Position numbers and translations under genes: made by a program. Of a DNA stretch of 41,969 bases, positions 3,686-33,166 are shown in pieces. Below the pieces are notes generated by a model. That model searched no databases. It saw only the letters and a list, made by a program, of their open reading frames with translations, and was not told the DNA's origin. The stretch lies in IMG/VR virus record IMGVR_UViG_3300021961_000005; one strand, written 5' to 3'. The DNA comes from a virus. How positions within the stretch are numbered: position 1 is the stretch's first letter; the number at the start of each line of letters is the position of its first letter.

Positions 3686-3702
3686 GGGGGTCCAAGAAAA
3701 AG

Positions 3703-7209: not shown

Positions 7210-7378
7210 TCTCTGGATCGAGGTTCCAGAGATTGATGATGCCGTGCTCATGATCGAAACCAACGACGCCGGGGGGCCGCCTGTCCTCTGGCTGGAGCGC
7301 GACCAAGACCCAGAGCCGTGGATCTTCAACTGGGGCGCAGGCCGCTACGAGCGCGCCGCCCGCGTGATCATCAAATGA
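7193..7378 (+). CDS. Hypothetical protein (61 aa)
   Basis: ORF with natural acidic composition. Its stop forms an ATGA overlap with the terL start. Confidence 0.45.
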   Translation: MTRSRDLWIEVPEIDDAVLMIETNDAGGPPVLWLERDQDPEPWIFNWGAGRYERAARVIIK

Positions 7379-9295: not shown

Positions 9296-9525
9296 CCCTG
9301 CCCGGCTTCGGCGGCGGCAGCGCTCCGCCCCCACCTGCACCGCCTGCGGCACCACCGCCCGCATCGACGATGCAGGACGCAGCATCGAGCCGCGCCCGAG
9401 CTGACGCCAGCCGTCGAGGTCGCGTGCAGCAAGGCGTCGGCGGCAGCATTCGCAACGTCGGTGGCGCGCAGGGCCTGAGCGTCAGCGACACCCAGCGTGC
9501 ACTCAAATCTCTCACGGGGCAGTAA
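9271..9525 (+). CDS. Pro-rich small protein (84 aa)
   Basis: GGGAGA lies 6 nt upstream of the ATG at 9271. Translation starts MSRIALYLTLPGFGGGSAPPPPAPPAAPPPAS. Position just before the portal gene. Confidence 0.5.
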   Translation: MSRIALYLTLPGFGGGSAPPPPAPPAAPPPASTMQDAASSRARADASRRGRVQQGVGGSIRNVGGAQGLSVSDTQRALKSLTGQ

Positions 9526-9628
9526 TGGCACAGCAACGCACAAACGCAGCGATCGCAGAGCGAGCCAAGGCGCAGGACACTACGCCACCGCCGCCCAAGC
9601 CATCGCTGTCGGCACAGTAGGGACGACC

Positions 9629-14829: not shown

Positions 14830-17616
14830 ATGGCAAAACTCATCCAGCCCAGCTTTGCCGGTGGTGAGGTATCCCCTTCTGTAGCAGCCCGCGTCGATCT
14901 ATCGAAGCGGGCGGCTGCCGTTGAGCGGGCCGAGAACTTCTTTGTTCGCGTCACTGGTGGGATGGAGAGCCGCCCGGGCATGCGCTTTATCGCCGAGGCC
15001 AAGACCACTGGCACCACGCGCCTGATCCCATTCGAGTTCAACACCGAGCAGACCTACATCATCGAGCTCGGCGATCAGTACATGCGCTTTTACACCTACG
15101 GCGGCCAGATCCTGAGCGGCGGCTCGCCCTACGAGATCGCGACGCCATACCTTGCAGCTGATCTATTCGCCATCGAGTTCGCGCAGAGCGGCGACGTCAT
15201 GACGCTCGTACACCCAAACTACGCACCGCGCGAGCTAGTGCGTATCACCAATACCAACTGGACGCTGACCGAGATTTCGTTTGAGCCCAGCCAAGCTCCG
15301 CCCACCGCATTGTCGCTGACCAACAACTACACTCAGAGCGGCGACATAGCGTCAGTCACCAAGGCCAACCCGGCTGTGGTCACGTCGACAGGGCACGGGC
15401 TGTCCACCGGTGCCGAGATCGAGATCACGGGCGTCGTCGGCATGACTGAGCTCAACGGCAACACCTACCGCGTTGTCATCATTGACGGCGACACGTTTCG
15501 GTTGGAAGGCGTCGACAGCAAAGGCTACAACAATTACAACAGCGGAGGCACATGGACCGTCAACGGCGACACCCTTAAATACAAGGTCACGGCCAACAAC
15601 CGAGACACGTTTGAGGAGAGCTTGGCTGGGCTTAGCTCTGCGACGCTGTCGATCACTGGCGCAACACAAGCCAACCCTCTAGTGATCACAACCGCAGTTG
15701 CTCACCAGCTGGAGTACGGCGACGAGATTTACATCAACAACGTCGGCGGCATGACGCAGCTTAACGATCGCCGGTTTCTTGTTCTGGATACCCCGACTTC
15801 GACAACTCTCCAGCTAATGAGCACCGGGCGCGCGGTCATCGACAGCACCGGGTACACGGCCTACACATCAGGCGGCACCATCCAGACGGCGTTTGTCAAG
15901 ACGCGGGCTACTGCCCAAAGCTGGGACAACACCGTTTTTTGGACGGCTGCGGCAGACGCCGATACCTATAACGTCTACCGAGCCGACGATAATGGGGTCT
16001 TTGGGTTTATTGGGCGGGTCGATATTGATGCTTTCCACGATGTATTTATCGAAGCCGACATTGGCGACACTGCCCCGCTCGCCGCCAATCCATTTGAGGA
16101 AGGTGCGGGCTTCTGGCCAAGTATCACAGGCTTCTTCCAGCAGCGTCAGATCTACGCCAATTCGGATGCATTCCCCAACAGGTTCTGGATGACGCAGACC
16201 GGCGTGTTCTACAACTTTGCCACCTCCTCGCCTCTGCGCGATGACGACGCCATTGTCGCCACCCTGTCTGCCCGCCGCATCAACGAGATCCGCCACATCA
16301 TTCCCCTCAGTGATTTGGTGATCCTGACCACCGGCGCAGAGTTTCGCGTCAAGGGCGCTGGCGATGCTGCGTTCACCCCACCCACCATCAATATCAAGCC
16401 GCAGAGCTACTACGGATCGACCGCCCTGCGCCCGATCGTTGCCGGTGACGTGGCGCTGTACATGGCACCGGGCAATTTCATTCGCGAGCTGTCCTATGAG
16501 TTCGCCACCGACAAATTCACAGGCCGTGACATCACCGTCCTTGCGCGGCACCTACTGGATTACAACGACGTCGTAGACTGGGGGTTTGCCTCCTCGCCGT
16601 ACGATCTGATCTGGTTGGTTCGCGATGACGGCACCGCGTTAACGCTCACCTACCAGCGTGAGCAGGAGGTCTTCGCTTGGACCCGTGCCTCGACGCAGGG
16701 CGACTTCAAGAGCGTTGCTGTGGTCCGTGAGGGCGATCACGATATTCCGTATTTTCTCGTGCAGCGCACGATCAACGGCACCGTCAAGCAGTTCGTCGAG
16801 CGCCTCGATGAGCGCGAGTTCGACGACCTGCAGGATGCGTTCTGCGTCGACTGCGGGCTGACGCTCGATGTGCCGATCACCATCACCAACATGACGGCAG
16901 CCGATCCCGTCGTGGTCACCGCCCCATCGCACGGGCTGAGCAATGGCGACACCGTCGACCTCTCGGACGTGATCGAGGTATCCAGCAGCAACACCCGGCG
17001 AGAAGTGGCATCGACAGATTACACCGGCACCGGCTTCACCGTGGCCAACGCCACGACGAACACCTTCGAGCTCAATCTCAATGGTTCGGGGTACGACGGT
17101 TCTGGCTTCGCTGCTTACTCTTCCGGTGGCGTAGTCAGGAAGGCGGTCACCACTTTGTCCGGGCTGGCTCACCTTGAGGGAGCAGAGGTGGTGGCCGCCG
17201 CCAATGGCTATGCCGAAACGGGGCTCACGGTGTCCGGTGGGTCAGTCACGCTCAGCGCGCCTGCCAGCCGTGTGCACATCGGCCTTCCCTATACCTGCCA
17301 AATGATCACGCTGCCGATCTCGACCTACGGCGGCAGCAACACCGTCGACAAGCGCACCATGAACATCAACCGCCTGACCGTGCAGGTCGAGCGCACCATG
17401 GGCATGTGGACCGGCCCGAGCACCGACCTGATGCGCGAAGCCAAGTTTGGCATGCCTAGCAACTACGGGCAGCCCCTGCCCATGGTCACAGAGGACGTCA
17501 ACACGACGATCAAAGGCGACTGGAGCAAAGAGAAGCAGGTCGTGATCGAGCAGCGTTCTCCGCTGCCGATGACCATCCTCGCCGTAGTGCCTGACGTGGC
17601 TGTGGGGGGCAACTGA
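14830..17616 (+). CDS. Nozzle / tail tubular protein B (T7 gp12-like) with three inserted repeat domains
   Basis: The N-terminus PSFAGGEVSPSVAARVDLSKRAAAVERAENFFVRVTGGMESRPG is typical of gp12-like proteins. Three internal modules of about 70-87 aa lie at 15349-15555, 15646-15882 and 16875-17136. Confidence 0.8.
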   Translation: MAKLIQPSFAGGEVSPSVAARVDLSKRAAAVERAENFFVRVTGGMESRPGMRFIAEAKTTGTTRLIPFEFNTEQTYIIELGDQYMRFYTYGGQILSGGSPYEIATPYLAADLFAIEFAQSGDVMTLVHPNYAPRELVRITNTNWTLTEISFEPSQAPPTALSLTNNYTQSGDIASVTKANPAVVTSTGHGLSTGAEIEITGVVGMTELNGNTYRVVIIDGDTFRLEGVDSKGYNNYNSGGTWTVNGDTLKYKVTANNRDTFEESLAGLSSATLSITGATQANPLVITTAVAHQLEYGDEIYINNVGGMTQLNDRRFLVLDTPTSTTLQLMSTGRAVIDSTGYTAYTSGGTIQTAFVKTRATAQSWDNTVFWTAAADADTYNVYRADDNGVFGFIGRVDIDAFHDVFIEADIGDTAPLAANPFEEGAGFWPSITGFFQQRQIYANSDAFPNRFWMTQTGVFYNFATSSPLRDDDAIVATLSARRINEIRHIIPLSDLVILTTGAEFRVKGAGDAAFTPPTINIKPQSYYGSTALRPIVAGDVALYMAPGNFIRELSYEFATDKFTGRDITVLARHLLDYNDVVDWGFASSPYDLIWLVRDDGTALTLTYQREQEVFAWTRASTQGDFKSVAVVREGDHDIPYFLVQRTINGTVKQFVERLDEREFDDLQDAFCVDCGLTLDVPITITNMTAADPVVVTAPSHGLSNGDTVDLSDVIEVSSSNTRREVASTDYTGTGFTVANATTNTFELNLNGSGYDGSGFAAYSSGGVVRKAVTTLSGLAHLEGAEVVAAANGYAETGLTVSGGSVTLSAPASRVHIGLPYTCQMITLPISTYGGSNTVDKRTMNINRLTVQVERTMGMWTGPSTDLMREAKFGMPSNYGQPLPMVTEDVNTTIKGDWSKEKQVVIEQRSPLPMTILAVVPDVAVGGN

Positions 17617-18065
17617 TGATCCGTGAGCTAAACCACGATGACCTGCCGCAGCTGCTGGAGCTGGCGCGCGAGATGCACCGCACGGGCGTCTATGCCGCCT
17701 ACCCTATGGACGAGGCCCGCGTCGCGTACATCCTGACCCGCCTGATCGAGGTGCCAGAGGCGCTGTCGATCGGCTATGAGGTCAGCGGCGAGCTGGTAGG
17801 TGCGTTTATCGGGGAGATCATCCAAGATCTTTGGATCGATGTGCGCGTCGCTGCTGATCACGCATTCTATGTGCGCGAGGCAGATCGAGGCAGCCGCGCC
17901 GGTATTATGCTGCTGCGAGCCTTCGAAAAGTGGGCCGCAGAAACTGGCGCTGACGTTCTGCGCCCTGTCGTGTATGCTGGCGTCGACAACCAGACCGTCA
18001 ACAACGTGCTGCAGCGTATGGGCTATGAGGGCGCGGGCACCGTACACAAGAAGGAGGCCGCATAA
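17616..18065 (+). CDS. GNAT-family N-acetyltransferase
   Basis: The acetyl-CoA motif RGSRAG lies in ADRGSRAGIMLLRAFEKWA. The protein is 149 aa with the typical GNAT layout. It overlaps both neighbours by 1 nt (TGATG, TAATG). Confidence 0.78.
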   Translation: MIRELNHDDLPQLLELAREMHRTGVYAAYPMDEARVAYILTRLIEVPEALSIGYEVSGELVGAFIGEIIQDLWIDVRVAADHAFYVREADRGSRAGIMLLRAFEKWAAETGADVLRPVVYAGVDNQTVNNVLQRMGYEGAGTVHKKEAA

Positions 18066-18631
18066 TGTGTATCAGTGCAACCGTCTTAGCGATCGCCTCC
18101 ACCGCACTCCAAACGGTCAGCGCGGTCCAGCAGGCCAACGCCCAAAAGGCGCAGGCAGAATACAATGCCGCCGTCGCCCGCAACAACGCCATCATTGCAG
18201 GACAGAATGAAGCGGACATCATCCAGCGAGGTGAGGTCGCTCGAGATATTCAGCGCATCCGCATTGACCAAACCATTGGCGCGGCTCGCGCCGTTATGGC
18301 AGGCAGTGGCCTGTTGCTTGAGGGCGGTGGAGAGACCACAACAGGGGCGCTGCTTGGCGACCTGCAGACCGCAGGCCAGTTCGACATCATGACGCTCAAA
18401 GGCAACATCGACCGAGAAGCCCGCCGCGCCAGAATTGAGGGCGTTCAGTTCCAAGCACAAGCAGGCTTGTTTGATCTGCAGGCGTCATCGATCAACCCAA
18501 TGCTCGCCGGTGCAGCTGCCGGGTTCTCCAGCCTAGTCTCCAGCGCAAACATCTTTGCTCCCAATACGCCAACCTTTGGCAGCAGTGGCCAGACCCGGCC
18601 CCGTGCTCGCCCGGCGGATCTTCTTGGTTAA
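18065..18631 (+). CDS. Internal virion protein (gp14-position)
   Basis: Hydrophobic N-terminus ISATVLAIASTAL followed by an A/Q-rich helical region. The call rests on position in the T7-like order gp12-(13)-14-15-16-17. Confidence 0.5.
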   Translation: MCISATVLAIASTALQTVSAVQQANAQKAQAEYNAAVARNNAIIAGQNEADIIQRGEVARDIQRIRIDQTIGAARAVMAGSGLLLEGGGETTTGALLGDLQTAGQFDIMTLKGNIDREARRARIEGVQFQAQAGLFDLQASSINPMLAGAAAGFSSLVSSANIFAPNTPTFGSSGQTRPRARPADLLG

Positions 18632-20382: not shown

Positions 20383-23300
20383 ATGGCTGACGAACTGGAC
20401 TTCTCGGGCGCACTGGATCGGGTCTTGCAACAGCAGGCCACCGGAGCTCCTACGGTATCGCCAATCCCATCGGCAGCCCCACTTGCCCCAACCACAAACC
20501 TACTGACTGGTGCAGCACCGGCACCATCTCCGTTTGCGGATGCACTGGATCGCGTCATCCGGGGCGACACGGTACCGCCACCTGTAGCCACAGCACCGGA
20601 TATGGTGCCTGATACATCTGCGCTAGGAGCAGACGCCCCGGCTCAATCTGCACAAGAGGCGGCGTCTGGCGTCGCTGCTGCCAACGGCCTGCTTGGCGAC
20701 GGCGTGAGCCCAGAGGTAATTGCAGAGGTCCGCCGTATAGCCAGAGATAAGCGCATCCCCCTGCCGCTTGCAGCGCAGACCTATATTGCGCGGGCTCAGG
20801 CAACCCCGGGCGATCGGTACCGCCGTTTGCTGCAGGAAAACCCCGGCTTGCGACGCATGGCTACCCAAGGCGGCGCATACGCCGACTTCATGCCAGACGC
20901 CGCCGCGCTTGCCACGACAGAGCAGGCGTTCACCGAAGCCCGCAAAGAGTGGTCCGTCGGTGGGGATAGATTAGATGACACGCTGGTCGGGCGCGCGATC
21001 ACGCGCGGCACCCTGCAGACCATCGCCTCCCTACCGGCCCTAGCAGCCTCCTTGGATCTTGGCGTCGCTCTCGATATTGGGGCGACCGAAGAGCAGATCC
21101 TCGAGCGCCTCGCGGCACCGTACGGCGGTTGGGCTGCGATGGAGAACTACCCTGCGTCGATGCGGGTGTCCGTGCTGGCAGCTGCAAGGCAGCAGTACAA
21201 CCTCGTTCAAGGGCTGACCGACGATGATCGAGTTGCTGCTCTTCAGCGGGCGGGCGAGTACTACTTCAGCGCGCAGCAGCTTGTCACCCAAGCGGAAGGG
21301 CTGGTCCGAAACCCCGGCAGCCAGCGCTTTATTACGAACACCCTGTCTCAGGCCCCAGACACGGTTGCCGGGACACTTGAGGCGTTTGCGTCTGACCCCG
21401 TAAACGGCGGGCTGTTCCTTGCAGAGACCATCCTCGAGAGCGCACCCAACATCGCTGCGACGATCATCATCTCGCGGGTGACAGGGTCGCTGTCGCTTGG
21501 TGCTGTGGTTGGTGCAACGGCAGGTGGCGGGCGCGAGTACGTCCTGTCCACTACACAGTTCTTGGCCGAGCGTGGCTACACCATTAACTCGGTCGAGGAC
21601 GCCATAGCCATCCTGCAGAACGCAGAGCTTATGCAAGAGGCGGCAGACTTTGGTTTTGCTCGGGCAATGCCCATCGCGATCCTTGACGCCCTCGCAGGCG
21701 TCGCATCTGGGGTGCGCCTCGGGCGCACTGCCCTCGGTGATGTCGTTGCACAGACCGCCGTTCAGGGGGCATCGGGTGCCCTTGGCGAGATGGGTGCCCA
21801 GATCGGCAGCGAAGGTAAGATCACCAGCGTACGAGATATCACGATCGAAGCGCTTGCAGAGCTACCCACGGCGCTGATTGAGGTGCCGCTTGCCGCAGGC
21901 CGGTCATTTGGGTCGGAGCGCCTTCCGCCAGAGCTCAATCAGCTCCTTGCTCCAAATGGCCTGCAGAGCGCGGCAGATCAGGCCGCCGCAGCACAGCAGG
22001 CGCTGGAGACCACCCGTGCCGCCATCGAGGAGACCGCCACCTTTGCCAGAGACCCTGATGCAGTGCGCGAGCTACTCGTGGCGTCGGGCGATCAGGAGGT
22101 GTCTATCCCCGTGCAAGAGATCGAGCGCCTGTATCAGGAAGGCGCGCTCACGGACGACGACCTCGCGTACCTGAACGTCGAAGACGAGCTGACCCAACAG
22201 GGCGAGCTGTCCGGCGATGTGGTCACGACAGCGAGCCGCGTCCTGACGCTGCAGGGCGACGCCTTTGCCAGCCTTTCCGAGCATGTACGGACGCAGGCTG
22301 GGGCCCCGACTGCAGCCGAGGCGCGTGAGGCCTTGGCTAACCGGGAAGCCGATATCGCGCGCCTGCAGGCAACGCTGGAGCAAGCGCAGAACGTGGCAGG
22401 CGAGATCAACACGCTGGCCGACGCGATCACCGAGCAGCTGCGCTCTACAACCGGTCTATCTCGAGGGCAGGCTCGCGCTGCCGCCCGCCTACTGGCTGAG
22501 CGCTACGCCGCCCGCGCTGCGCTCTTCGAGCCCGGCACGACGGCGCAGAGCCTGTACGAGCGCGACCGTGTGACATTCGAAACTGAGGGTCGGGCCGCAC
22601 CTGCACCAGACCTAGAGCAGCCTGCAATCAGAAACGACCTGATCGCTCGCCGCATGCAGCGCACAGGCGTACAAACTGTTGATGATTTCTGGCAGCGCTG
22701 GCGAGACACCATGGTCGCCACGGCAGGCCCAGATACCCGATTGTCTATGGAAGGCTTATCTGCCCCCATGTCCGGTCGTGTTGAAGCAATGCTTTCTGGG
22801 CTTCGGGAAGAGGCTCGGGCTACCGATTTAGGTACCGTTATTACTCAGCGGTTTGGCCTTAATGACGATGGTACAATCAAAGCCCGCATCCCAAGAGATA
22901 TACTGATCCGGGCAGGTATTAGCCCGACGCCTGAGAACTTGAGCACCGTAATCAGCGCTTTAGAAAGCCCTGCGGACGAGACCCAAACTTTTGAGCAGGC
23001 GGCTGCAGATATTGGAAATGCTCGGCAGCGGCTGGCGGATGATCCTGCGTCCTTGGGCCTAGACCCAGAACTCGCGGCTTCGATCAATCCGATCTACCGG
23101 CCCGAGGCCCTGCCCCCCAGTCGGATGAAGGGGTCGAACCAAGAGGCCGCGCAATTCCTCGAAGACACTTATGCAGACGACCCAATCACCGACCTGACGG
23201 CGGAGATTACCCCTGAGCGCCTAGATCGTATTGCGACCCAGATGGCTGCGGAAACTGAGCTGGCCCTTGAAAGCACCGGCAACGCTGCTGACTGGTACTC

Positions 23301-26300
23301 CGCCGCGCTCGACCGCACGCTGAGTGTTGCCGCTGTCAAGTATCCGATGCTGACCTCTGACGCTGCCGCCGAGGCTGCAGGCCTTGGCACGGCGGCCAAT
23401 GCGCGGTTCTTGTTTACCTACATCATGGCTACCACGTCTCAGAACCTCGACGTTGCGGCCAACGCCAAAGCGACAGACGCCGCCTTTGAGCAGATGCTCG
23501 CGCGCTGGGCGGCGGGCGATTATACGATGGACACCAAGCGCTGGGGCACTGGCGACAAGAAAAAGGCGATGAACGAGAACTTCGCCAAGTTCAATCGCAT
23601 GCTCCCAAAGATGCCGGGTGACACCGCAGTGGAGCGGCTGTCGGCCATGGATCGGCTGTTCCGCCAATCCAATACGGTCGGGGAGTGGACGCGACTGATG
23701 GATGCGGCGGGCATCCCATACAGCCCTCCGGGTCAGACCGCTGTTGACGCTGTCGTGTATGGGTCATCGACGCTCGGACCCAAGATCGGAAACGGTTTCT
23801 GGCAAAACCTGAACGGCAACTTTTCTCCGCTGACCATCGATCTGTGGATGCGTCGCACATGGGGCCGGTTGACGGGAAAAAGCATCGGCCTTGAAGACGC
23901 GCTGCCGGGACAGCGCGACCGGTTAAAGGCGGCAGTTCGCCGCTCGCGGTCTCGCACAAAAGACATCGACGCTTATGTCTCCGAGCTGCAAGCCCAGTTG
24001 GATGCAGCCACCACCACCCTCGACACGCTGACCATCAACGACTTCGGGACCAAAAAGGCGTTCAATGCTGAGACGCGACGCCTGCGTGCAGAGGCGTCAA
24101 ACCTTCGCGAGGTGATCGCGGACGCCAAGGGCGTAAAGGCCGCTGAACCCTACAAGGCAGCATACAACACCGACAACGCGGCCTTGCTGGCCTATGCCAA
24201 GCGGCTGCTAAAAGTGTGGGACACAGAGTACAAACGCCTCGTTGCCCAATATGGCGCTGACGCCATCCCTGACGACTTGCAACCCACATGGGCGCGTGCG
24301 GCAAAGACCATCCGTGCCAACCTTGGTACGCCACTGGATCAGGTTGCCAACGGCACCCAGCGTCGCCAGATCGAGACTGCGGGGCGGCTCGCTATTCAAA
24401 AGCTCTCTGCTCGCGGGATCAATGTCACGATGGCGGATATGCAAGCGCTCTTGTGGTATCCTGAAAAAGAGCTATGGTCATCGCTGACCAGAAAGTTGGA
24501 TGTCGATGAAGACGGCGTTCCGATCCCGATCACGTCCAACCTGAATGAGAGTTATGACGCGGTATTCACGCGCATTTTGGGAGAGCAAGGTTATGAAGTC
24601 CAAAGAGGCACTGGAACTGGAGCAGGAGCAGCTGGAGATCGAGCCGTCTTTGAGCAACCTGACGTCGCTGGAGAGCGCGACCAAGGAACAGATGGCGAAG
24701 CTGTTCGAGCAGATCAACGCGGACGAGGAACAGGCGGGTATTCGAGCGGAGGCCTTACGCCGCTTGAAGGTGCGCCAACTGTCGTCGGGGCAGCTGGCCC
24801 CGACCCAGAGCTCGTCGCCGTCGCAGAGCAATACGCCGCCGCAAACGGAATAGATCTCCGCCGTCAGGCAGAGTTCGTTGAAGTCGATCCTGAGCGGGCC
24901 GCGCGCATCGCTCAGGCTTACGAAGAGATGGCGCACGCGCCACAAGACCCTGCGGTGCAGGCGGCTTATGCTGACCTGATCCAGCAAACCATCGCCCAGT
25001 ACCAAGCACTGGTTGACGCCGGGTACACATTCACCTTCTTTGACAGCGAGACCGACCCCTACGCGGGCAATCCGTGGAACGCCATGCGCGACCTGCGCGC
25101 CAACAAGACGATGGCAGTCTACGGCACCTATGACGGCTACGGCACCGAAGGCCTGACCCAAGCGGCCATCGATGATAACCCGATGCTGCAGGACACCGGG
25201 CTGGTGTGGCTCGACCAGAACGGCGTCGAGCGCCCGGTCACCGCCAACGACCTGTTCCGCGCTGTGCACGACGCATTCGGTCACGGCATCGAGGGTGCGG
25301 GGTTCCGCGCACGCGGCGAAGAGAACGCATGGCAGGCGCACGTTCGCCTGTTCACCGGGCCAGCGATCGGCGTGCTCACCAGCGAGACCCGGGGCCAGAA
25401 CAGCTGGCTCAACTACGGCCCGTTCGGCGAGCAGAACCGCACCGCCAGCGTCGAGGACACGGTGTTCGCCCCGCAGAAGGCGGGCATCATGCCGGAGTTC
25501 ACATGGACTGAAGGCCGGTCCGCAGATGCAGCTATTGCCTCCCCTACCCCCAGCCCTGCGCTGGAGCAGCCCGGACCGACGCCGGGGCAGCCCGCGCCAG
25601 CGCCCGAGACGCCGCAGCAAGGCACAGTCGGCGCGCCGCGTGGGGCGTACCGGCTGCCCACTACAGATGACCTCCGCAACCTGATCACCCTGTCTGCAAA
25701 TGCAGACCCATCGACCTTCGTGCACGAGGTCGGTCACATGTTCCTGTTCCAGATGCTGCGGGACATTGCAGATACGCGCATCACGCCGGAAGGCAAGGCG
25801 CAGCTGGAAGCGCAGATCGCCGCCACCCGCGCGTGGTTTTCCAGCAACGCAGCGCAGGGTCTGGCTGATCTCAAGGTTATGGCCAAGGACATGACCAAAC
25901 GTGCAGCCGCTGCACCTGATGATGCTGAGCTGCAGCTGCGCGCATCTCGCCTGACCGCCGCTGTGCAGCGCGCGGACGCCGGGGGCGGTGCCGCTTACAT
26001 GGAACAGGTCGCACAGGCCTTTATGGACCCGGCATCCCCGGGCCGGGATGAAGCAGCCGAGGTCGTGTATCACGAGCTGTGGGCCCGTGGCTTCGAGAGC
26101 TACCTCGGCACAGGCAGCGCACCCAGCGCCGAGCTCCGCAACGTGTTTGCCAAGTTCGCGCAATACATCAGCAACGTGTACAAGAGCCTGCGCCGCCTAA
26201 ACGTGACGGTGTCCCCCGAGGTCGCCGATGTCTTCGACCGCCTACTGGCGACCGAAGACGCCATCACGCAAGAGCGCCGGGGCGCGATGTACCAGCTGTC

Positions 26301-29300
26301 TCCGGGCGTCCTTGAGGGCGCTACGCCAGCCGAGGCCAATCAACTACGCAAGCTGGCGTCGGAGGCCGAAGATCAGGCGCGGACCGAGATGGCGTCTCGC
26401 GTGGAAAACAGTCTCAAGACCGAGGCGCGCGCCAAGCGTCGTGCGCGGCGTGAGGTACTGGCCAACGAGATCTCCGAGCAGGTCGCGGCAGAGCCTGTGT
26501 ACGCGGCGACCAACATCGCCAAGCGCGGCACCCTGCCTGACGGCACCAAGACCGGCACCGGCAAGATAGATCGCGCTGAGCTTGTTGCGGTCGCCGGTGA
26601 AGAGGCGGTGTCCCGTATGCCATCCGGCATGGTCTCTGGCCGGGTGCGACCAGACAACGCCATCCCCCTCGGGGATCTGGCCACCCTGTCTGGCTTCGCC
26701 GACATCTACAGCATGATCGAGGCGCTGACCAACCCGACGCCGACCCCAGAAGCCACGGCGGTCAAGGAGCGCACAGACGCCGCCATGCTGCAGGAGTTCG
26801 GCGCTGATCTGGACGCCCGAGCGCTTCAGACCAAAGCAGTCGAAGTCGTGCAGAACGACAAGTTCCAGCAGCTCCAACAGCTGCAGCTCCGCATTCTGCG
26901 GCGGCTGGCAGCGCAACCCATGGCGCGGATCGCCCAGCGTCAGGCCGAGCAGGAAGGCGCGCCTGCCGCAGCAGTGGATCGCGCAGCCACTGAGGCCGCG
27001 CAGGCAGAGCAGGGTGCAGCACGCACGCCCCGTGAGGGCGTACAGGCCGCGCTCGCTCGGATCAGAGCAGACGTGCAGAAGACCGCAAACGCCAGTCAGC
27101 GCCGCGCTCAGGCCGCAGCACGCAGGCAGACCGCAGCGATCAGGCTAGGTATGGACCCTGCAGCGATCACCGCAGCAGCCCAGCGTTACGTCAGGACAAT
27201 CAAGGTCAAGGATGCAACGCCCGCCCGCTATCGTCAGGCGGCAGCACGATTGACTGCCAAGATCGAGCGCGCCATCGCTGATCGGGATTATACGCAAGCG
27301 GCGACGCTCATGGAGCAGCGCGCACTTAATCTGGCGGTCGCCAAAGAGGCGTCGCTCATTCAGACCAAGATCGAGACACAGCGCACCCGGTGGCGTGAGG
27401 TCACGGCAAGATCTGACAAGCGGCTGGCGCAGCGTTATTCGATCGACTGGGTCAACGCGATCCGGGTAGTGCTGGAGCCCTTCGGCATGGCGCGCAGCAT
27501 GCCGCGAAACTATGACCCGGTCCGCGCTCTGGCGGATCTGCAAGCGGTCGAGCCGACGCTTTATACCGAGATCCAGTTGGCGATCAGCAACTATGCAGCT
27601 CGGTCACGGGATGCAGCACAAGCCGACCCCAACAACCCGTACAAAGACCTGAGTGTGCAGGAAGCGCTCGACCTACTCGAGACTGCCGACACGATGCTGG
27701 CAAACGCACGCGACAGCCACGGCATTCTGGTTGAGGGCCGCCGGGTTGAGTTCGTCGCCATCGCTGATGAGGTCTCGGTCAATGTAAGCAAGCGACGTAA
27801 GGTGCAGAAACAGGCAGGCCGCTTGGGACGAGGTCGCGGTAGCCGCACGTTCCGCGAGACCCGCCGCCAGCTCGGTGCGTTCAAGGCAAGCCTGCGCCGG
27901 ATCGAGCAGTGGGCCCGTGACTTTGACAACGGCAACCCTCGCGGCCCGCTGACCCGATACCTCGTGCGCCCGATCATGGCTGCGGTCGATGCTTACACCG
28001 TCGCCCGGAAAGGACCGCAAGAGGCACTGGCTGCGCTACTTCGCAAGCGCACTGACCTGATGGCGCGCCGCCCCATCCGCGCACAGGAGCTGGATGGCTA
28101 CGTTTTCCAGACCAAGGGCGAGCTGATCATGGCGCTGCTGCACACAGGCAACGACAGCAACAAGCGCAAGCTGCTTCTGGGTGGCGCGACAGATGTGGAG
28201 ACCAACCGCCGTTATGTGTGGGGCAGCCAAGACGCCGAAGGCAACCTCGACACCTCCCGCTGGGATACCTTTATTGATCGGCTGTTTGCCGATGGCACCC
28301 TGACGCAAGCTGATATGGAGCTGGTGCAGGGTATCTGGGACATCTTCGAGCAGACCAAGCAGGCGGCGCAGGCGGCGCACAAGCAGATGTACGGGTACTA
28401 TTTTGCCGAGGTGCAGGCAGATCCTGTGGTCACCCCGGTCGGCATCTATCCGGGAGGCTATGCGCCAGCGATCACCGACAGCATGATGAACCCGGATGGT
28501 GCACGCTTTGAAGCCGAAGAAGTGATGTCGCAGCAGTCAAATGCCTCGATGTTTCCCGGCGCTGAAAAGGGCTTCACGCAATCTCGCACAGAGTACAACC
28601 AGCCGCTGGACCTCGACCTGACGCGCATCCCTGCTCACTTCGACCGGGTCATGAAGTTCGCCTACCTCGGCCCTGCAGTTCGGCAGGCAGCTCGCTTGGT
28701 GACCAACAGAGCCTTCCGCGAGGCCGTGCGCCCCGGCAGCCCTGACGTGATTGATGTTGCCGTCATCCCGTGGCTGCAGCGCACGGTGCAGCAGCGCGTC
28801 ACCACCCCGCCCACCAATCAAGGGTGGTCTGGTGTGTCCCGGGTTGCTTCAGCCATCGACCGCCGCGTCGGCCTGCACATCATGGCTGGCAACATAATCA
28901 ACGCAGCGCAGCAGATTACCGGCTTCTCGGTGGCTGCCGCCCGCATCCCTGCGCGACACTTGGCTGTTGCCGCCACCCGGTGGCGGGTCAACAATCAGTC
29001 GGTTCGGGCATACATCATCGCGCAGTCGCCATTTATGGAAGAGCGTATGACTGGCGGGATGAACGAGGCCAGCACAACCCTAGAAAAGATCCTAAGTGAA
29101 CCGGGTTTATTAAATCGGTCGCAAGCCGCCGCGTCTCGCTATGGCTACTTTGCACAGCAGATCGCGCAAAACTTGGTCGACCCCACGGTCTGGATCGCAG
29201 CTGAACGGCATGGCATGGAAATCGTGTACCCAGCCGCCTATGCTGAAGTTCTCGACAGAACAGGAGACGAGGCTGCCGCCGACACCGCAGCTCGGGCAGA

Positions 29301-30018
29301 GGTCGTGGCTTACGCCGACAGCATTGTGCGCGACACGCAGGCACCCATGAGCCCAAGTGATGTTTCTGGCATCGAGGCCTCCTCACCGCTCGCTCGCCTG
29401 TTCCTGAAGTTCTATTCGTACTTCAACGCGATGGGTAACCTGCTGGTGACCGAGAAGAACATCGCGATGAACAGCGATATGGGCTGGGCCGGTAGGTACG
29501 GTCGGTCCTTCTATGCCTACCTGATGATCGTGACGATCCCGACGATTGTTGCAGAAAGCATTGCTCAGCTGGCGCGCGGAGGCTTCGAGGATCTCGAGGA
29601 TGAAGACGAGCGCGACCAGCTGATGTTCGAGCTGCTCATCGGGTCACAGCTCAAGACCATGGCAGCCATGGTGCCACTTGCTGGATTGGTGGTGTCGACT
29701 ACTTACGGCATCGTTGTGACAGATCAAGTCTACGATGACCGGATCAACCTGTCGGCTGGTATCGGCGTGACCGAAAGCACGCTGCAAAACCTCGCCCGCT
29801 TGATTGTCGCAGCTGCTGACCCAGACACGGATATCGAAACTCGGCGCGCGATCCGCACAACACTGGATGCGCTAGGCCTTGCGCTCGGCCTGCCGACTAA
29901 CTGGGCGAGCAAGCCGATCAGCTACGCGGTCAGCGTCTCTGAAGGCGACAGCAGACCAGAAGGCTTCGGTGACATCCTCCAAGGTGCGCTCACAGGCAAA
30001 GATGGAACTGACCGATGA
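20383..30018 (+). CDS. Giant (3,211 aa) internal virion / ejection protein with polyvalent-protein features
   Basis: Single open frame in the gp16 position. It has the HExxH motif FVHEVGHMF (25723-25737) with a downstream YHELWARGFESYL (about 26068-26106). A separate module contains VHDAFGHG (25264-25287). There are Pro-rich and Gly-rich linkers and a long coiled-coil-like A/R/Q region. C-terminal hydrophobic helices lie at about 29506-29575 and 29650-29720. Confidence 0.85.
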   Translation: MADELDFSGALDRVLQQQATGAPTVSPIPSAAPLAPTTNLLTGAAPAPSPFADALDRVIRGDTVPPPVATAPDMVPDTSALGADAPAQSAQEAASGVAAANGLLGDGVSPEVIAEVRRIARDKRIPLPLAAQTYIARAQATPGDRYRRLLQENPGLRRMATQGGAYADFMPDAAALATTEQAFTEARKEWSVGGDRLDDTLVGRAITRGTLQTIASLPALAASLDLGVALDIGATEEQILERLAAPYGGWAAMENYPASMRVSVLAAARQQYNLVQGLTDDDRVAALQRAGEYYFSAQQLVTQAEGLVRNPGSQRFITNTLSQAPDTVAGTLEAFASDPVNGGLFLAETILESAPNIAATIIISRVTGSLSLGAVVGATAGGGREYVLSTTQFLAERGYTINSVEDAIAILQNAELMQEAADFGFARAMPIAILDALAGVASGVRLGRTALGDVVAQTAVQGASGALGEMGAQIGSEGKITSVRDITIEALAELPTALIEVPLAAGRSFGSERLPPELNQLLAPNGLQSAADQAAAAQQALETTRAAIEETATFARDPDAVRELLVASGDQEVSIPVQEIERLYQEGALTDDDLAYLNVEDELTQQGELSGDVVTTASRVLTLQGDAFASLSEHVRTQAGAPTAAEAREALANREADIARLQATLEQAQNVAGEINTLADAITEQLRSTTGLSRGQARAAARLLAERYAARAALFEPGTTAQSLYERDRVTFETEGRAAPAPDLEQPAIRNDLIARRMQRTGVQTVDDFWQRWRDTMVATAGPDTRLSMEGLSAPMSGRVEAMLSGLREEARATDLGTVITQRFGLNDDGTIKARIPRDILIRAGISPTPENLSTVISALESPADETQTFEQAAADIGNARQRLADDPASLGLDPELAASINPIYRPEALPPSRMKGSNQEAAQFLEDTYADDPITDLTAEITPERLDRIATQMAAETELALESTGNAADWYSAALDRTLSVAAVKYPMLTSDAAAEAAGLGTAANARFLFTYIMATTSQNLDVAANAKATDAAFEQMLARWAAGDYTMDTKRWGTGDKKKAMNENFAKFNRMLPKMPGDTAVERLSAMDRLFRQSNTVGEWTRLMDAAGIPYSPPGQTAVDAVVYGSSTLGPKIGNGFWQNLNGNFSPLTIDLWMRRTWGRLTGKSIGLEDALPGQRDRLKAAVRRSRSRTKDIDAYVSELQAQLDAATTTLDTLTINDFGTKKAFNAETRRLRAEASNLREVIADAKGVKAAEPYKAAYNTDNAALLAYAKRLLKVWDTEYKRLVAQYGADAIPDDLQPTWARAAKTIRANLGTPLDQVANGTQRRQIETAGRLAIQKLSARGINVTMADMQALLWYPEKELWSSLTRKLDVDEDGVPIPITSNLNESYDAVFTRILGEQGYEVQRGTGTGAGAAGDRAVFEQPDVAGERDQGTDGEAVRADQRGRGTGGYSSGGLTPLEGAPTVVGAAGPDPELVAVAEQYAAANGIDLRRQAEFVEVDPERAARIAQAYEEMAHAPQDPAVQAAYADLIQQTIAQYQALVDAGYTFTFFDSETDPYAGNPWNAMRDLRANKTMAVYGTYDGYGTEGLTQAAIDDNPMLQDTGLVWLDQNGVERPVTANDLFRAVHDAFGHGIEGAGFRARGEENAWQAHVRLFTGPAIGVLTSETRGQNSWLNYGPFGEQNRTASVEDTVFAPQKAGIMPEFTWTEGRSADAAIASPTPSPALEQPGPTPGQPAPAPETPQQGTVGAPRGAYRLPTTDDLRNLITLSANADPSTFVHEVGHMFLFQMLRDIADTRITPEGKAQLEAQIAATRAWFSSNAAQGLADLKVMAKDMTKRAAAAPDDAELQLRASRLTAAVQRADAGGGAAYMEQVAQAFMDPASPGRDEAAEVVYHELWARGFESYLGTGSAPSAELRNVFAKFAQYISNVYKSLRRLNVTVSPEVADVFDRLLATEDAITQERRGAMYQLSPGVLEGATPAEANQLRKLASEAEDQARTEMASRVENSLKTEARAKRRARREVLANEISEQVAAEPVYAATNIAKRGTLPDGTKTGTGKIDRAELVAVAGEEAVSRMPSGMVSGRVRPDNAIPLGDLATLSGFADIYSMIEALTNPTPTPEATAVKERTDAAMLQEFGADLDARALQTKAVEVVQNDKFQQLQQLQLRILRRLAAQPMARIAQRQAEQEGAPAAAVDRAATEAAQAEQGAARTPREGVQAALARIRADVQKTANASQRRAQAAARRQTAAIRLGMDPAAITAAAQRYVRTIKVKDATPARYRQAAARLTAKIERAIADRDYTQAATLMEQRALNLAVAKEASLIQTKIETQRTRWREVTARSDKRLAQRYSIDWVNAIRVVLEPFGMARSMPRNYDPVRALADLQAVEPTLYTEIQLAISNYAARSRDAAQADPNNPYKDLSVQEALDLLETADTMLANARDSHGILVEGRRVEFVAIADEVSVNVSKRRKVQKQAGRLGRGRGSRTFRETRRQLGAFKASLRRIEQWARDFDNGNPRGPLTRYLVRPIMAAVDAYTVARKGPQEALAALLRKRTDLMARRPIRAQELDGYVFQTKGELIMALLHTGNDSNKRKLLLGGATDVETNRRYVWGSQDAEGNLDTSRWDTFIDRLFADGTLTQADMELVQGIWDIFEQTKQAAQAAHKQMYGYYFAEVQADPVVTPVGIYPGGYAPAITDSMMNPDGARFEAEEVMSQQSNASMFPGAEKGFTQSRTEYNQPLDLDLTRIPAHFDRVMKFAYLGPAVRQAARLVTNRAFREAVRPGSPDVIDVAVIPWLQRTVQQRVTTPPTNQGWSGVSRVASAIDRRVGLHIMAGNIINAAQQITGFSVAAARIPARHLAVAATRWRVNNQSVRAYIIAQSPFMEERMTGGMNEASTTLEKILSEPGLLNRSQAAASRYGYFAQQIAQNLVDPTVWIAAERHGMEIVYPAAYAEVLDRTGDEAAADTAARAEVVAYADSIVRDTQAPMSPSDVSGIEASSPLARLFLKFYSYFNAMGNLLVTEKNIAMNSDMGWAGRYGRSFYAYLMIVTIPTIVAESIAQLARGGFEDLEDEDERDQLMFELLIGSQLKTMAAMVPLAGLVVSTTYGIVVTDQVYDDRINLSAGIGVTESTLQNLARLIVAAADPDTDIETRRAIRTTLDALGLALGLPTNWASKPISYAVSVSEGDSRPEGFGDILQGALTGKDGTDR
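24593..24853 (+). CDS. Candidate 86-codon ORF in the +1 frame, nested in the giant gene
   Basis: ATG at 24593 is preceded by GGGAGAG. Hand-counted GC3 is 72/86 here against 19/60 for the giant frame over 24601-24780. Translation is MKSKEALELEQEQLEIEPSLSNLTSLESATKEQMAKLFEQINADEEQAGIRAEALRRLKVRQLSSGQLAPTQSSSPSQSNTPPQTE. Confidence 0.4.
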   Translation: MKSKEALELEQEQLEIEPSLSNLTSLESATKEQMAKLFEQINADEEQAGIRAEALRRLKVRQLSSGQLAPTQSSSPSQSNTPPQTE

Positions 30019-30052: not shown

Positions 30053-33000
30053 ATGACGATCACAGCCCAGACCTCAAAGACGGGTCCATATAACGGCAAC
30101 GGCACGACGACCGTTTTCTCGTACACCTTTAGAGTGCAAGACGAAACCCAGCTTGAAGTAACCGTACTTGCCAGCGACGGTATCACAGAAACAACCAAGG
30201 TGCTGAACACAGACTACACAGTCACGGGTGTTGGCAACAATAGCGGCGGCACCGTCGTTATGGGCACGGCCCCGGTTACTGGGGAAAAACTGACGATTAC
30301 CAGAAACGTCACTCTCGACCAAGTGGTCGATCTGCAAAACCGGGGATCGGTTAATCCAGAAACACTTGAAGCCAGCTTTGACAAACTGACGCAGATCGCG
30401 CAGGACCAGCAAGAGCAGCTCGACCGCTCGCTCAAGGTAGATCTGTTTGAGCAGGCAGACCTCGAGCAGCTGACGCTAAACGTCAACGCGCTCGCAGCCA
30501 TCGAAGGCGACATCTCGACTGTGGCGGGCATCAGCTCAGACGTGACGGATGTAGCCGGTAACGCCGCCGACATTTCGACCGTGGCTGGGATCAGCGCGGA
30601 CGTCACCGCTGTGGTGGCTGACGCCACAGACATCGGTACGGTCAGCACAAACATCGCCAATGTAAATACCGTCGCTGGGATCAGCGCGGACGTCACCGCT
30701 GTGGCAGCTGACGCCACAGACATCGGTACGGTCAGCACAAACATCGCCAATGTAAATACCGTCGCTGGGATCAGCTCGGACGTCACCACGGTCGCCACAA
30801 ACGTAACCGACATCACAAACTTTTCTAATGTCTACCTCGGCCCCAAAACTACAGACCCCAGCACTCGAAATGATAGCTCTGCCCTGCAGGAGGGTGACCT
30901 GTATTTTAACACCACAAGCGACGTGATGAAGGTATATGAAGGATCCGTCTGGGTCGCAGCGTATGTGTCTCTGTCTGGTGCTTTGCTGTCAATTAACGAC
31001 CTTTCTGATGTATCTGATGCTGCTGCCTCTCGAACCAACCTTGGTCTCGGCACTAACGACAGCCCGACATTTACCAGCACAATAGTTACAGGCGCGGGCG
31101 GCGCGGGGACGGTGCAGTCTAACATAGGCAACAGCACGCTTTCAACAGGGTCCGCAATCCTTTACATCGGCGCGAGCCGCACAGGCGACGGACAGGCGCG
31201 AATTGATATGATCGGGGATACAACCTACGCCCCCGGCCTTCGAATATTGCGAAACTCTGGCGCGAACGGATCGACGCTTCTTCAGCATCGCGGAACCGGG
31301 GCTATCGCAATATCTGCCATTGAGCTTGCGGACATTGCTTTTAAGACAAACAATCTGGAGCGGATGCGTATCAGCAGCGCCGGACTGGTAGGCATTGGGA
31401 CGAGTAGCCCTACAGAAATGCTCTCCGTAGCAGGTAATATCTCTGTCACCGGCACTGTAGATGGTCGTGATATTGCAGCAGACGGTGCCACGCTGGACAG
31501 TCTCGCAGCGCCAACCAGCCCCCCTGTTTATGCGTCCGCCCACGGGATCAGTTCCGGCGCGGACAGCGCAACTGAGTTGCAAGCCGCGATTGACACAAAT
31601 GCGCCTGTTATCGTGATCGACGTTGATTGCCGTCTGGACAGCCCAGTGACGCTGAACAACGACAATCAGGTCATTGTGGTGAATGCCACGGTCTACCAGT
31701 ATGGCAGCGGGTTGTTCACGGTCGCTGAAAATGTCCATGCGCCTGCTATAATCGGCAACGGCGTTATCGACGGGACGAACGCAGACGCGGGCAGTTTCGC
31801 AATTCGCACCGGGGCAGTTCCAAACCTGACCGTTGATTTGCTGTTTCAGGAATACGCTGCGGCGAACTTGCTTCTGGTGATGCCAACCTCTGCCGCCAGC
31901 ACAAACACCTTTGGCGGCAACATTCGGCTGCGCGGCGCTGCACTGGCTGGCGGGGCTGCTCAATTCCTGAACGGGATCGTCTTGATCGGGCGCGAGGCAT
32001 ACCACCACGCCCACACCGCAGACGGAACAACGGACCCCATCACGGCCCCCTATGCATGGCCTGAGTTGAACAACGGGTCAGTCGTCGTTCACGTTCAGGC
32101 GCTGGACGGATCGTGGTCGGTCCTTGAGGTCGATACGGACTTCACTCTGGCGTACGATGGTTCGGATCAGCCGGTGGTCACACCGCTGTCTGCAACGACA
32201 TCGGGCGACATCTGGCATATCTGGCCTGCGCAACCAGTGACCACAGGCAACCGGCGGCCTATATCCAGCATGAAAATCGAGATGATCGGGGACGCAATCA
32301 AGCACGGCATCCTGATTGGCCGGTGGGCAGACGGGCTGAAAATCGGCGGGTTGATCCGTCGCGTGACAGACGCGGCGACGGCTGTTCGGTTTAACCCGTA
32401 TAACGCCAGCGCAGTTCGGAAGCGGACCGGTCAAGCGGGCGACAATATCCATTTCACTGACCTGATTACCACGGACGGAACCTCGTCTGGCACCCCGGCT
32501 GCTGCTGTTTCTCTGGGGGCTGGCAGCTATAAGTTGACGGGGGGGATCGGCTTTGACGGATCAGGATATTCCAGTTTGCAGATTGTTCCGGCTGATTGTG
32601 AATTTGAGACGCTGACAGGCACGGCCAGTTCATCCGGGGCTGTTGTCACCGGCACCGGCACGGCGTTTCTGACAGAATTGACGCTGGTTGGCTCCAATGC
32701 GGATAAAATTGTCAACACTGATGGTCAGGTGCTCAGCATTTCGTCCATCGACAGCGATACCCAGATCACACTGACCGCGACCCCAACAACAACCATGTCA
32801 GGGGCCACGCTGAAATCCAAAAACATTGAAAATGTGGTCAGCGGGCAAATTATGCTGTCGTCTGATGGCGATGGCTTGGCATATGGGAAGCCCTATGCAG
32901 ACCGCCTCTGGCAATGGCCGCCCCGCCGGTATGTCGGCATCGCCACGGTAACGGCGGGCCTGACCAGTGTGACGGTGACATTCCCAGAGCCTCTGGCGCG

Positions 33001-33166
33001 TGCACCTGTGATCGGGGAGGTGCAGGTGACGGCAGATGAAAACACAGGCCTACGCCATTGGGCCGCCGCGTCCAGTTTCACGCGCGAGAGCATCGTTGTC
33101 TCCCAGAATGCCACCGCTGGCGGCGACCGGGACTATGCGGTTTCCGTCAACCTGTTTGACGCATAA
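30053..33166 (+). CDS. Tail fibre / tailspike (chimeric)
   Basis: It starts with an N-terminal anchor-like domain. Next come VAGIS-type repeats and the YLGPKTTDPSTRNDSSALQEGDLYFNT and RTNLGLGTNDSPTF fibre motifs. ERMRISSAGLVGIGT and DGRDIAADGATLD follow. The C-terminal half, about 520 aa, resembles a beta-helix (NAPVIVIDVDCRLDSPVTLNNDNQVIVVN). Confidence 0.85.
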   Translation: MTITAQTSKTGPYNGNGTTTVFSYTFRVQDETQLEVTVLASDGITETTKVLNTDYTVTGVGNNSGGTVVMGTAPVTGEKLTITRNVTLDQVVDLQNRGSVNPETLEASFDKLTQIAQDQQEQLDRSLKVDLFEQADLEQLTLNVNALAAIEGDISTVAGISSDVTDVAGNAADISTVAGISADVTAVVADATDIGTVSTNIANVNTVAGISADVTAVAADATDIGTVSTNIANVNTVAGISSDVTTVATNVTDITNFSNVYLGPKTTDPSTRNDSSALQEGDLYFNTTSDVMKVYEGSVWVAAYVSLSGALLSINDLSDVSDAAASRTNLGLGTNDSPTFTSTIVTGAGGAGTVQSNIGNSTLSTGSAILYIGASRTGDGQARIDMIGDTTYAPGLRILRNSGANGSTLLQHRGTGAIAISAIELADIAFKTNNLERMRISSAGLVGIGTSSPTEMLSVAGNISVTGTVDGRDIAADGATLDSLAAPTSPPVYASAHGISSGADSATELQAAIDTNAPVIVIDVDCRLDSPVTLNNDNQVIVVNATVYQYGSGLFTVAENVHAPAIIGNGVIDGTNADAGSFAIRTGAVPNLTVDLLFQEYAAANLLLVMPTSAASTNTFGGNIRLRGAALAGGAAQFLNGIVLIGREAYHHAHTADGTTDPITAPYAWPELNNGSVVVHVQALDGSWSVLEVDTDFTLAYDGSDQPVVTPLSATTSGDIWHIWPAQPVTTGNRRPISSMKIEMIGDAIKHGILIGRWADGLKIGGLIRRVTDAATAVRFNPYNASAVRKRTGQAGDNIHFTDLITTDGTSSGTPAAAVSLGAGSYKLTGGIGFDGSGYSSLQIVPADCEFETLTGTASSSGAVVTGTGTAFLTELTLVGSNADKIVNTDGQVLSISSIDSDTQITLTATPTTTMSGATLKSKNIENVVSGQIMLSSDGDGLAYGKPYADRLWQWPPRRYVGIATVTAGLTSVTVTFPEPLARAPVIGEVQVTADENTGLRHWAAASSFTRESIVVSQNATAGGDRDYAVSVNLFDA
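30584..30788 (+). repeat. 90-bp in-frame tandem repeat (about 2.3 copies) in the tail-fibre gene
   Basis: Copies lie at 30584-30673 and 30674-30763, differing at 2 positions (gtggtggctg versus gtggcagctg). A partial third copy starts at 30764. Confidence 0.9.

Follow-up and report, generated by a model that had tools for sequence, protein, structure and literature searches.

The DNA analysed here, called the window in the following, is the whole stretch of 41,969 nucleotides (nt) of the virus record IMGVR_UViG_3300021961_000005 from IMG/VR. It contains a giant gene on the plus strand (20383..30018 in the list of open reading frames, ORFs), which encodes a protein of 3,211 amino acids (aa), and inside this gene lies a second, much smaller ORF in the +1 frame. 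The small ORF starts with the ATG at 24593, 7 nt downstream of the Shine-Dalgarno-like (SD) sequence GGGAGAG (24579..24585, plus strand), and ends with the TAG at 24851-24853. In the giant frame, its first codons overlap the end of a domain that we call domain X (aa ~880-1407, 23020..24603, ending ...LWYPEKELW...LNESYDAVFTRILGEQGYEVQR, delimited by the module boundaries in tblastn matches). This domain is followed by a low-complexity linker rich in Gly, Ala, Asp and Arg and written in rare codons (aa 1408-1454, 24604..24744, GTGTGAGAAGDRAVFEQPDVAGERDQGTDGEAVRADQRGRGTGG) and by the start of the next domain of the giant protein (24745..25500, YSSGGLTPLEGAPTVVGAAGPDPELVAVAEQYAAANG..., read in the giant frame). 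The +1 ORF itself can be divided into a constrained core of about 50 codons (24593..24744, MKSKEALELEQEQLEIEPSLSNLTSLESATKEQMAKLFEQINADEEQAGI), defined by conservation and substitution pattern, and an unconstrained tail with substitutions of the giant-frame type (24745..24853, RAEALRRLKVRQLSSGQLAPTQSSSPSQSNTPPQTE followed by the TAG), all of these features being on the plus strand. Upstream, the +1 frame is closed by the TGA at 24542-24544, to which an in-frame ATG (24545) is directly joined (24542..24547, plus strand), so that a +1 version of 102 aa could also be read. No SD sequence lies upstream of this ATG and in most relatives a +1 stop intervenes before the conserved ATG; judged from these signals, the upstream start is probably not used. 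The TGA, the GGGAGAG, the ATG at 24593 and the TAG were all found where the original prediction, made from the letters of the window, had placed them. As argued below, 24593-24853 very likely holds a genuine protein-coding gene, which lies within the giant gene in the +1 frame and has a translation start of its own.

The nested ORF first attracts attention by a switch in codon usage. The fractions of codons with G or C at the third position (GC3), which had originally been counted by hand in both frames, were reproduced exactly by a computed frame plot. In the giant frame they are 15/20 at 24481-24540, 19/60 at 24601-24780 and 14/20 at 24901-24960, and in the +1 frame the value is 72/86 over 24593-24850. 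Over the whole giant gene, giant-frame GC3 in windows of 150 nt has a mean of 0.70 with a standard deviation of 0.10. The minimum of the 9.6-kb gene (0.26, about 4.4 standard deviations under the mean) falls on 24583-24732, with 0.86 in the +1 frame over the same stretch, and across 24593-24744 the giant frame has 15/51. The frame-specific plot bears out the proposed jump of the coding signature, but a true switch is limited to 24593-24744, since from about 24745 on many relatives have conserved the giant frame (YSSGGLTPLEGAP...). The mean log relative synonymous codon usage points the same way: the +1 ORF reaches +0.28, whereas on the same bases the giant frame has only -0.26, compared to a gene-wide value of 0.12 +/- 0.10. 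As one example, GGA accounts for 8/12 Gly codons in the linker vs 26/231 in the entire giant gene. The high GC3 of the +1 frame is partly automatic, since its third positions are the first positions of the giant frame, which are G-rich in a stretch of Gly, Ala, Asp and Glu codons. The informative anomaly is therefore the collapse of GC3 in the giant frame. Two milder dips of giant-frame GC3 (0.40-0.44) occur at 20443-20652 and 22723-22932 in regions that are P/A-rich or linker-like. These were considered as sites of further nested genes and rejected, since the alternative frames there contain stops.

The upstream protein segment served as the query for scans of IMG/VR, of JGI metagenomes and of GTDB genomes, and the relatives so collected were deduplicated to 21 distinct sequences. 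These fused-type relatives, which we call group A, share 55-97% identity in domain X and stem from independent IMG/VR, JGI, TARA and ENA assemblies and from one Rhodobacteraceae metagenome-assembled genome. The giant frame is open through the region in 21/21 of them, and the +1 ORF is likewise open in all 21, for 50-113 codons and up to a stop of its own, the position of which varies. All other four non-host frames (the three of the minus strand and the remaining one of the plus strand) are broken by stops in several relatives. A minus-strand gene was considered as well, since an antisense ORF of 561 aa extends over 24478-26163. It was rejected, since each frame of the minus strand is interrupted by stops in several relatives; the third positions of this antisense ORF coincide with the wobble sites of the +1 frame, and it resembles a high-GC artefact.

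Not only the open frame but also the +1 peptide is conserved. From the ATG on, it follows the consensus M[KP]SKEL[KRQ]E[IML]E[QA]E..[LM]..EPSLDKMLDL.DPKVL.GLG.L, and in the clade of the window the second half reads ...EPSLSNLTSLESATKEQMAKLFEQ.... Replacements in the +1 frame are conservative (E/D, L/I/M, K/R/Q), whereas in the giant frame the same bases encode changing residues (G, T, D, R, S and A). The linker pattern G.G.AG..GDRAV..Q... of the giant frame is discernible in relatives at 51-60% identity and otherwise only loosely conserved. What follows the linker differs between relatives. The window and L042 continue with the YSSGGL.PLEGAP domain, whereas L023, L031, L047 and L052 carry an HExxH 'FLHESGH' peptidase-like domain and L025 and L026 an 'APDPNNVELSARW' (APDPNN) domain. 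In L052, X is 88% identical, the downstream domain is a different one and the +1 ORF ends at 52 aa. The metallopeptidase-like domain with the HExxH motif 'FLHES[AG]H' is located about 250-450 nt past the WYPEK anchor in L023, L031, L047 and L052, and domains of this kind have been proposed to cut polyvalent proteins into pieces (PMC5512222).

Indications for a second protein also come from the distribution of substitutions over codon positions. Within domain X, the mean pairwise differences at the three giant-frame codon positions show a normal pattern of 0.23/0.15/0.58, and the family-wide values for the first 18 overlapping codons are 0.39/0.31/0.21. Expressed in terms of the +1 frame, position 2 is least variable there, followed by position 1, and position 3 varies most. 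The close relatives L022 (the same contig as L003) and L044 allow a finer view. In the 600-nt flanks they differ from the window at 50-68 sites (8-11%), of which about 80% are third positions of the giant frame and most are synonymous in that frame. Within 24593-24744, only 3 and 4 substitutions are found, none of them at a third position of the giant frame, where about 12 would be expected, and all of these 3-4 substitutions are synonymous in the +1 frame and non-synonymous in the giant frame. Beyond this point, in 24745-24853, substitutions are again synonymous in the giant frame and non-synonymous in the +1 frame. A sliding window over about 3 kb gives a unique minimum of third-position differences at 24592-24741, namely 0, compared to 12.8 +/- 5.1 for L022 and 9.8 +/- 4.5 for L044. 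In nine pairwise comparisons, some of which share a sequence, 56 substitutions in the ORF are synonymous in the +1 frame vs 10 in the giant frame, and upstream of the ORF this ratio is reversed. In the second set of X genes, the stand-alone-type group B described below, the shift in codon positions is also seen, in a weaker form.

Judged by these comparisons, the +1 frame is under purifying selection and the synonymous rate of the host frame is suppressed. The original prediction had named synonymous-site constraint in each frame as a check on an overprinted gene in the interdomain linker, and the relatives answer in favour of such a gene: SD sequence, ATG, ORF and peptide are conserved, and substitutions are synonymous only in the +1 frame. 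The proposed length of 86 codons has to be reduced. An ORF of this length with its own stop is indeed present, but the constrained extent covers only about 50 codons (24593-24744), since the substitution pattern switches back at 24745 and the ORF of L052 already stops at 52 aa. In this comparison, the last 36 codons of the ORF are an off-frame read-through over the next domain of the giant protein. This domain (24745-25500) is 60-75% identical in L001, L005 and L006 and also occurs in L042, P0014 and many phage records. As a separate observation, the domain after the linker (PDPELVAVAEQYAAANGIDLRRQAEFVEVD...DPYAGNPWNAMRDLR) is common to about 200 mycobacteriophages and several cyanophages, in which it carries such different labels as lysin, RelA/SpoT, crystallin motif protein and large polyvalent protein.

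The signals for translation initiation are conserved too. A core motif GGAG, GAGG or AGGA is present 7-10 nt 5' of the ATG in 19/21 relatives, at a background of 0.10 for windows of 14 nt, and the two relatives without it carry GAGAGAG or GAAGGG. The giant-frame residues encoded at the SD sequence vary among relatives (GE, RS, GR, RE, TG, EK). The ATG is found in 21/21 relatives and the Tyr or Asn codon of the giant frame that supplies it is always TAT or AAT, whereas the giant gene itself favours TAC over TAT (54 vs 30) and AAC over AAT (83 vs 20). In L030 and L055, the ATG lies a few codons further upstream, on an Asn codon AAT and not on the Tyr codon TAT, and stands behind its own GAGGA. 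In most lineages, a stop in the +1 frame is located 0-4 codons 5' of the ATG. From these sequence features, an independent internal start of translation at the ATG 24593 appears likely. Ribosomes would start at AUG 24593 by means of the SD sequence GGGAGAG (24579-24585) and would probably use the same late mRNA as for the giant protein; a simple consensus scan found no sigma-70-like internal promoter. An RNA element as the conserved feature was considered and rejected, since there is no Rfam match in the region and local RNA folding is no better than that of shuffled sequence (z = +1.25).

The product would be a small acidic protein of the helix-kink-helix type. Its core has an isoelectric point (pI) of 4.15, and the AlphaFold2 model predicts two helices, the second one long, with a kink at EPSL between them, followed by a disordered tail. 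The function would reside in the first ~50 residues and the tail to the TAG at 24853 would be a mere passenger in this clade. The sequence contains neither Cys nor a hydrophobic N-terminus, signal peptide or lipobox; EALELEQEQLEIEPSLSNLTSLESATK and EQMAK are examples of peptides specific to the +1 product. A tblastn search with the 86-aa peptide against 50,697 GenBank phage records gave no match. Its gene has been annotated solely on contigs of 0.5-1.5 kb and in cases of short overlap, the protein is unnamed everywhere, and a full-text literature search returned no earlier description of a nested gene in polyvalent proteins. As far as these sequence comparisons go, it represents a new, unannotated family of small proteins. 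The kind of gene is known, since overlapping genes occur in phages, and its place is unusual.

The place is defined by domain X, the module end of which lies at aa 1405-1408 of the giant protein in all tblastn matches to relatives. X comprises about 520 aa and is predicted to be all-helical, with a mean predicted local distance difference test (pLDDT) score of 84 and a predicted template modelling (pTM) score of 0.80 in AlphaFold2. An exhaustive HMMER search (E <= 1e-3) detected relatives of X in 1,307 representative proteins. Of the 150 best of these, most carry the domain within proteins of 2,000-4,800 aa, and in some X stands alone as a protein of 470-750 aa. Among the conserved motifs are AITSQN, GPKIG.GF.QNL.GN..P.T.DLW.MRTWGR and LWYPEKEL. 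There is no sequence match for X in Pfam, NCBIfam or PDB and no structural match of the model in PDB (Foldseek, E <= 0.001). In BFVD, the model matches uncharacterised phage polyvalent proteins labelled RelA/SpoT, ART-PolyVal-like or 'large polyvalent protein associated domain'. Since X has no model in Pfam or NCBIfam and no fold match in PDB, it can be regarded as a candidate for a new 'large polyvalent protein associated domain'. A divergent X domain in the giant protein of a podovirus (L001, MW202722.1, approximately 4890-5300) also has a +1 ORF after LWYPEK, of 62 aa (MSSQFNPPSAQQAFNEQMETDYFAREFAKQL...), for which no convincing similarity to the small-protein family was found.

The nested gene is found at the 3' end of X not only in the fused genes of group A but also in stand-alone X genes. 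In the latter (L062-L068), AGGAGG is followed after 8 nt by an ATG and a peptide of the form MT[KR]SNA...[DE]VT.ALD.ATP.Q..GFV.EL.SI. The +1 ORF of these genes is fully nested in the G/R/D-rich 3' tail of X, and the stops of both frames are only 26 nt apart. L081, L082, L086 and L087 have a fully nested +1 ORF like that of L062-L068. In three further cases (L043 from a Pararhizobium genome, L069 and L084) the overlap with X is limited to 47-122 nt and the ORF continues beyond the stop of X; the ORF of L084 has been annotated by JGI as a gene of 40 aa. The equivalence of the small genes of groups A and B is proposed from their position, frame, SD sequence with ATG, size, acidity (pI 4.2-4.5) and predicted helicity.

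The persistent pairing suggests a role for the small protein. Its likeliest role would be that of a partner of domain X which is translated from the same mRNA and serves as chaperone, regulator or inhibitor, because the pair persists through domain shuffling, in stand-alone genes and with overlaps that are short and easily broken. This proposal is derived from genetic linkage and is a tentative one, which we regard as possible without favouring it strongly. X and the small gene are adjacent or overlapping and are inherited together, as is typical of toxin-antitoxin or effector-immunity pairs, though one X gene (L088) occurs without the small ORF. Neither X nor the small protein has a significant match to a toxin, antitoxin or immunity family in Pfam, NCBIfam, PADLOC or PDB. 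A still more specific version, which we consider rather doubtful, is that X and the small gene form a self-contained cassette of an effector and a cognate trans-acting partner (inhibitor, immunity factor or chaperone). This cassette would be transferred as a whole between polyvalent virion proteins and stand-alone genes, and the linker of the giant protein would be a by-product of reading through the older small gene in a new frame.

The alternative that fares best concerns only the function and leaves the identity of the feature, as deduced from the sequences, untouched. According to it, the small protein is real but acts independently of X, for instance as an acidic anti-defence factor of the DNA-mimic type that is locked to X by the overlap. 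Several phage anti-restriction proteins are small, acidic and helical. The same can be said of the protein described here (pI ~4.2-4.5), the class of its host gene is assumed to be active early in the conflict with the host (PMC5512222), and overlapped genes are inseparable by recombination. However, the pairing also holds where the overlap is only 47-122 nt (L084, L069, L043) and the genes would be easily separable, and no match to PADLOC or an anti-defence family was obtained. We regard an X-independent function as rather unlikely.

Quite improbable is a programmed +1 (or -2) frameshift near 24585-24595, which had been put forward originally and would yield an isoform of about 1,490 aa, consisting of the N-terminal domains and X with the acidic helix at its C-terminus. 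In that case, the GGGAGAG would be a stimulator as in prfB, and SD-like elements do stimulate +1 shifting in RF2 (release factor 2). It fits this idea that the +1 ORF begins right at the end of X with an SD-like element just 5' of it, and that the stops of the two frames in stand-alone X genes are no more than about 26 nt apart, as expected of alternative C-termini. A shift would need no ATG, though, and yet the ATG is present in 21/21 relatives of group A and in group B, and the T wobble that supplies it is retained against the codon preference of the giant gene. The spacing of 7-10 nt between SD sequence and ATG is that of initiation, and the +1 stops 0-4 codons before the ATG leave almost no space for a shift site. 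Inspection of the aligned upstream sequences revealed no conserved slippery or hungry-codon motif, slow codon or stop at the site, and with neither an Rfam match nor a fold better than that of shuffled sequence (z = +1.25), no stable stimulatory RNA structure is predicted, the SD-like element being a conceivable stimulator in principle. In addition, the conserved part of the small ORF lies past the stop of X in L084, L069 and L043, as in an ordinary downstream gene.

It is even less probable that there is no second protein at all and that the signal reflects a constraint at the nucleotide level (RNA structure, a regulatory or packaging site, or pausing at rare codons) or is a by-product of a Gly-rich linker. 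A frame rich in Gly, Ala and Asp automatically raises G at first positions and removes +1 stops, and rare codons could conceivably pause translation between domains. Against this stands that the constraint follows the codon periodicity of the +1 frame, with position 2 being least variable, then position 1 and then position 3, and that +1 replacements are conservative despite a nucleotide divergence of up to about 40%. Furthermore, SD sequence and ATG are conserved, the RNA has no Rfam match and folds no better than shuffled sequence, and the other linkers with low GC3 (20443-20652 and 22723-22932) lack an open alternative frame. The last explanation completes the three that the original prediction had listed with no choice among them. 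It is a compensated pair of frameshifts or assembly indels in a giant protein that truly or ancestrally reads +1 through 24593-24790, would account for the composition signal of the single sequence and can practically be dismissed, since the giant frame is open in 21/21 relatives and leads into at least three different downstream domains, its linker pattern is seen at 51-60% identity, the +1 ORF ends in its own stop at a site that varies among relatives, the giant frame from 24745 on is 60-75% identical to homologous domains elsewhere, and independent assemblies (L022, L044 and the ENA contigs behind P0001-P0004) share the frame structure and align without indels.

Taking these alternatives together with the substitution data, we consider it highly probable that the nested ORF is a selected coding gene. 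There are nevertheless points which weigh against this interpretation or parts of it. The composition of the giant frame, rich in Gly, Ala and Asp, yields few +1 stops by itself, so that the length of the ORF alone is weak evidence. The small protein has no significant match in Pfam, PHROGs, NCBIfam, PADLOC or PDB. Its association with X is not without exceptions either: L088 is an X gene without a small ORF, and L089 an X gene with an unrelated, basic small ORF. Hence, X does not strictly need the small ORF, and the pairing is common but not universal. Likewise, the comparison of the small proteins of groups A and B by hhalign is not significant (E = 0.26), and for this reason we claim only a positional equivalence of the two groups and not homology in sequence. 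Finally, the relative age of the two overlapping frames, discussed next, is a hypothesis.

The small gene is probably the older of the two readings. Three observations speak for this order: the codons preferred by the genome are used in the small gene but not in the host frame, several divergent stand-alone lineages have the conserved part of the small gene outside X, and the linker in the host frame is of low complexity and poorly conserved. In the proposed course of events, an X gene would have lost its stop codon and would then have been read through the small gene in the other frame. Such an origin would explain both the low complexity and the rare codons of the linker.

A comparison with known overlapping genes supports parts of this picture and shows where the nested gene differs. 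The Rz/Rz1 spanins of lambda and its relatives (PMC6139136) are the closest parallel, since a small gene with its own start lies on the same strand in the +1 frame of a larger gene, the pair is embedded or partly overlapping depending on the lineage, and gene callers routinely miss the small gene. An origin of embedded spanins by loss of the upstream stop codon has been discussed (PMC6139136), and the same course, in which stop-codon loss extends the upstream gene over the downstream one, is proposed here. Unlike Rz1, the small protein lacks a signal peptide, a lipobox and Cys and is therefore not an o-spanin. The host also differs, being a soluble-looking polyvalent protein of 3,211 aa without a transmembrane segment, the overlap is situated at an interdomain linker, and there is no sequence similarity.

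ComS of Bacillus subtilis, with a length of 46 aa, offers a second parallel from outside the phages. Its gene comS lies in srfAB, and therefore also encodes a small protein in a distinct frame within a giant multidomain gene, and it is expressed from the same operon transcript as srfAB (PMC12915044). In contrast to the gene described here, comS is a cellular gene, its product acts in an unrelated pathway (competence), the sequences are unrelated, and comS occurs in one lineage only, whereas the nested ORF is found across many divergent lineages of phages and mobile elements. The overprinted genes B, K and E of phiX174 (reviewed in PMC8227390) share with it the dual-coding DNA, the suppressed synonymous variation of the host frame and the biased or disordered nature of one of the products. 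However, the present virus is a double-stranded DNA podovirus with about 42 kb (window size) and no obvious pressure on genome size, and the disordered and oddly coded partner is the host frame and not the nested gene, which again suggests that the nested gene is older. The frameshift products gpG/gpGT of lambda and 10A/10B of T7 (reviewed in PMC5009743) are similar in that an alternative frame at a defined point of a late structural gene gives a second product. They differ in that they depend on a slippery site and need no start codon, whereas here SD sequence and ATG are conserved, stops lie just upstream and no slippery motif is present.

The giant host gene is located after the internal virion protein gene(s) and before the tail fibre gene, as judged from the synteny of the window with the structural order of T7-like phages. 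Matches to phrog_9880 are spread along its product in a profile search of PHROGs, and a relative with 62% identity (P0027) has the Pfam domains ART-PolyVal and LPD22; the LPD22 match of the window protein itself is weak (E = 0.077). The domains downstream of X differ among the relatives, in line with the domain shuffling that is characteristic of polyvalent proteins. By its domain composition, the product of the giant gene is a mosaic and belongs to the large polyvalent proteins as described in PMC5512222. Proteins of this class are presumed to be packaged weapons, which phages and conjugative elements inject together with their DNA, and are thought to be active in the early conflict with the host (PMC5512222). 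That publication makes no mention of overlapping genes or frameshifts. A role of the giant protein as an internal virion or ejection protein is plausible from its synteny with internal virion protein genes, which is the sole support for it.

The gene order across the whole window (1-41969) is T7-like. It comprises genes for a primase/helicase (3663-5912), the large terminase (7318-8856), the portal or connector (9497-11368), the major head protein (12359-13357), a tail protein (14830-17616), an internal virion protein (18065-18631), the tail fibre (30053-33166) and, on the minus strand, a DNA polymerase (36679-38799) and a RecE-like exonuclease (39628-40767). No close relative of the window is present among the 50,697 GenBank phage records, the best match having about 70% DNA identity in short pieces.

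The nested gene stands for a protein that annotation pipelines overlook unless the contig is tiny or the overlap short. It provides an entry point to the function of the abundant X domain, and two mutations, both silent in the frame of the giant gene, could knock out the small protein. Moreover, the abnormal codon usage of a linker can mark dual coding and can serve as a rule in the search for nested genes in other large phage proteins. If X and the small gene do form a cassette, polyvalent proteins could grow by the loss of stop codons across gene boundaries, and partner genes would thereby be hidden in their linkers. The finding bears on the question of how the domains of polyvalent proteins stay inactive, folded or sorted in the cell that produces them.

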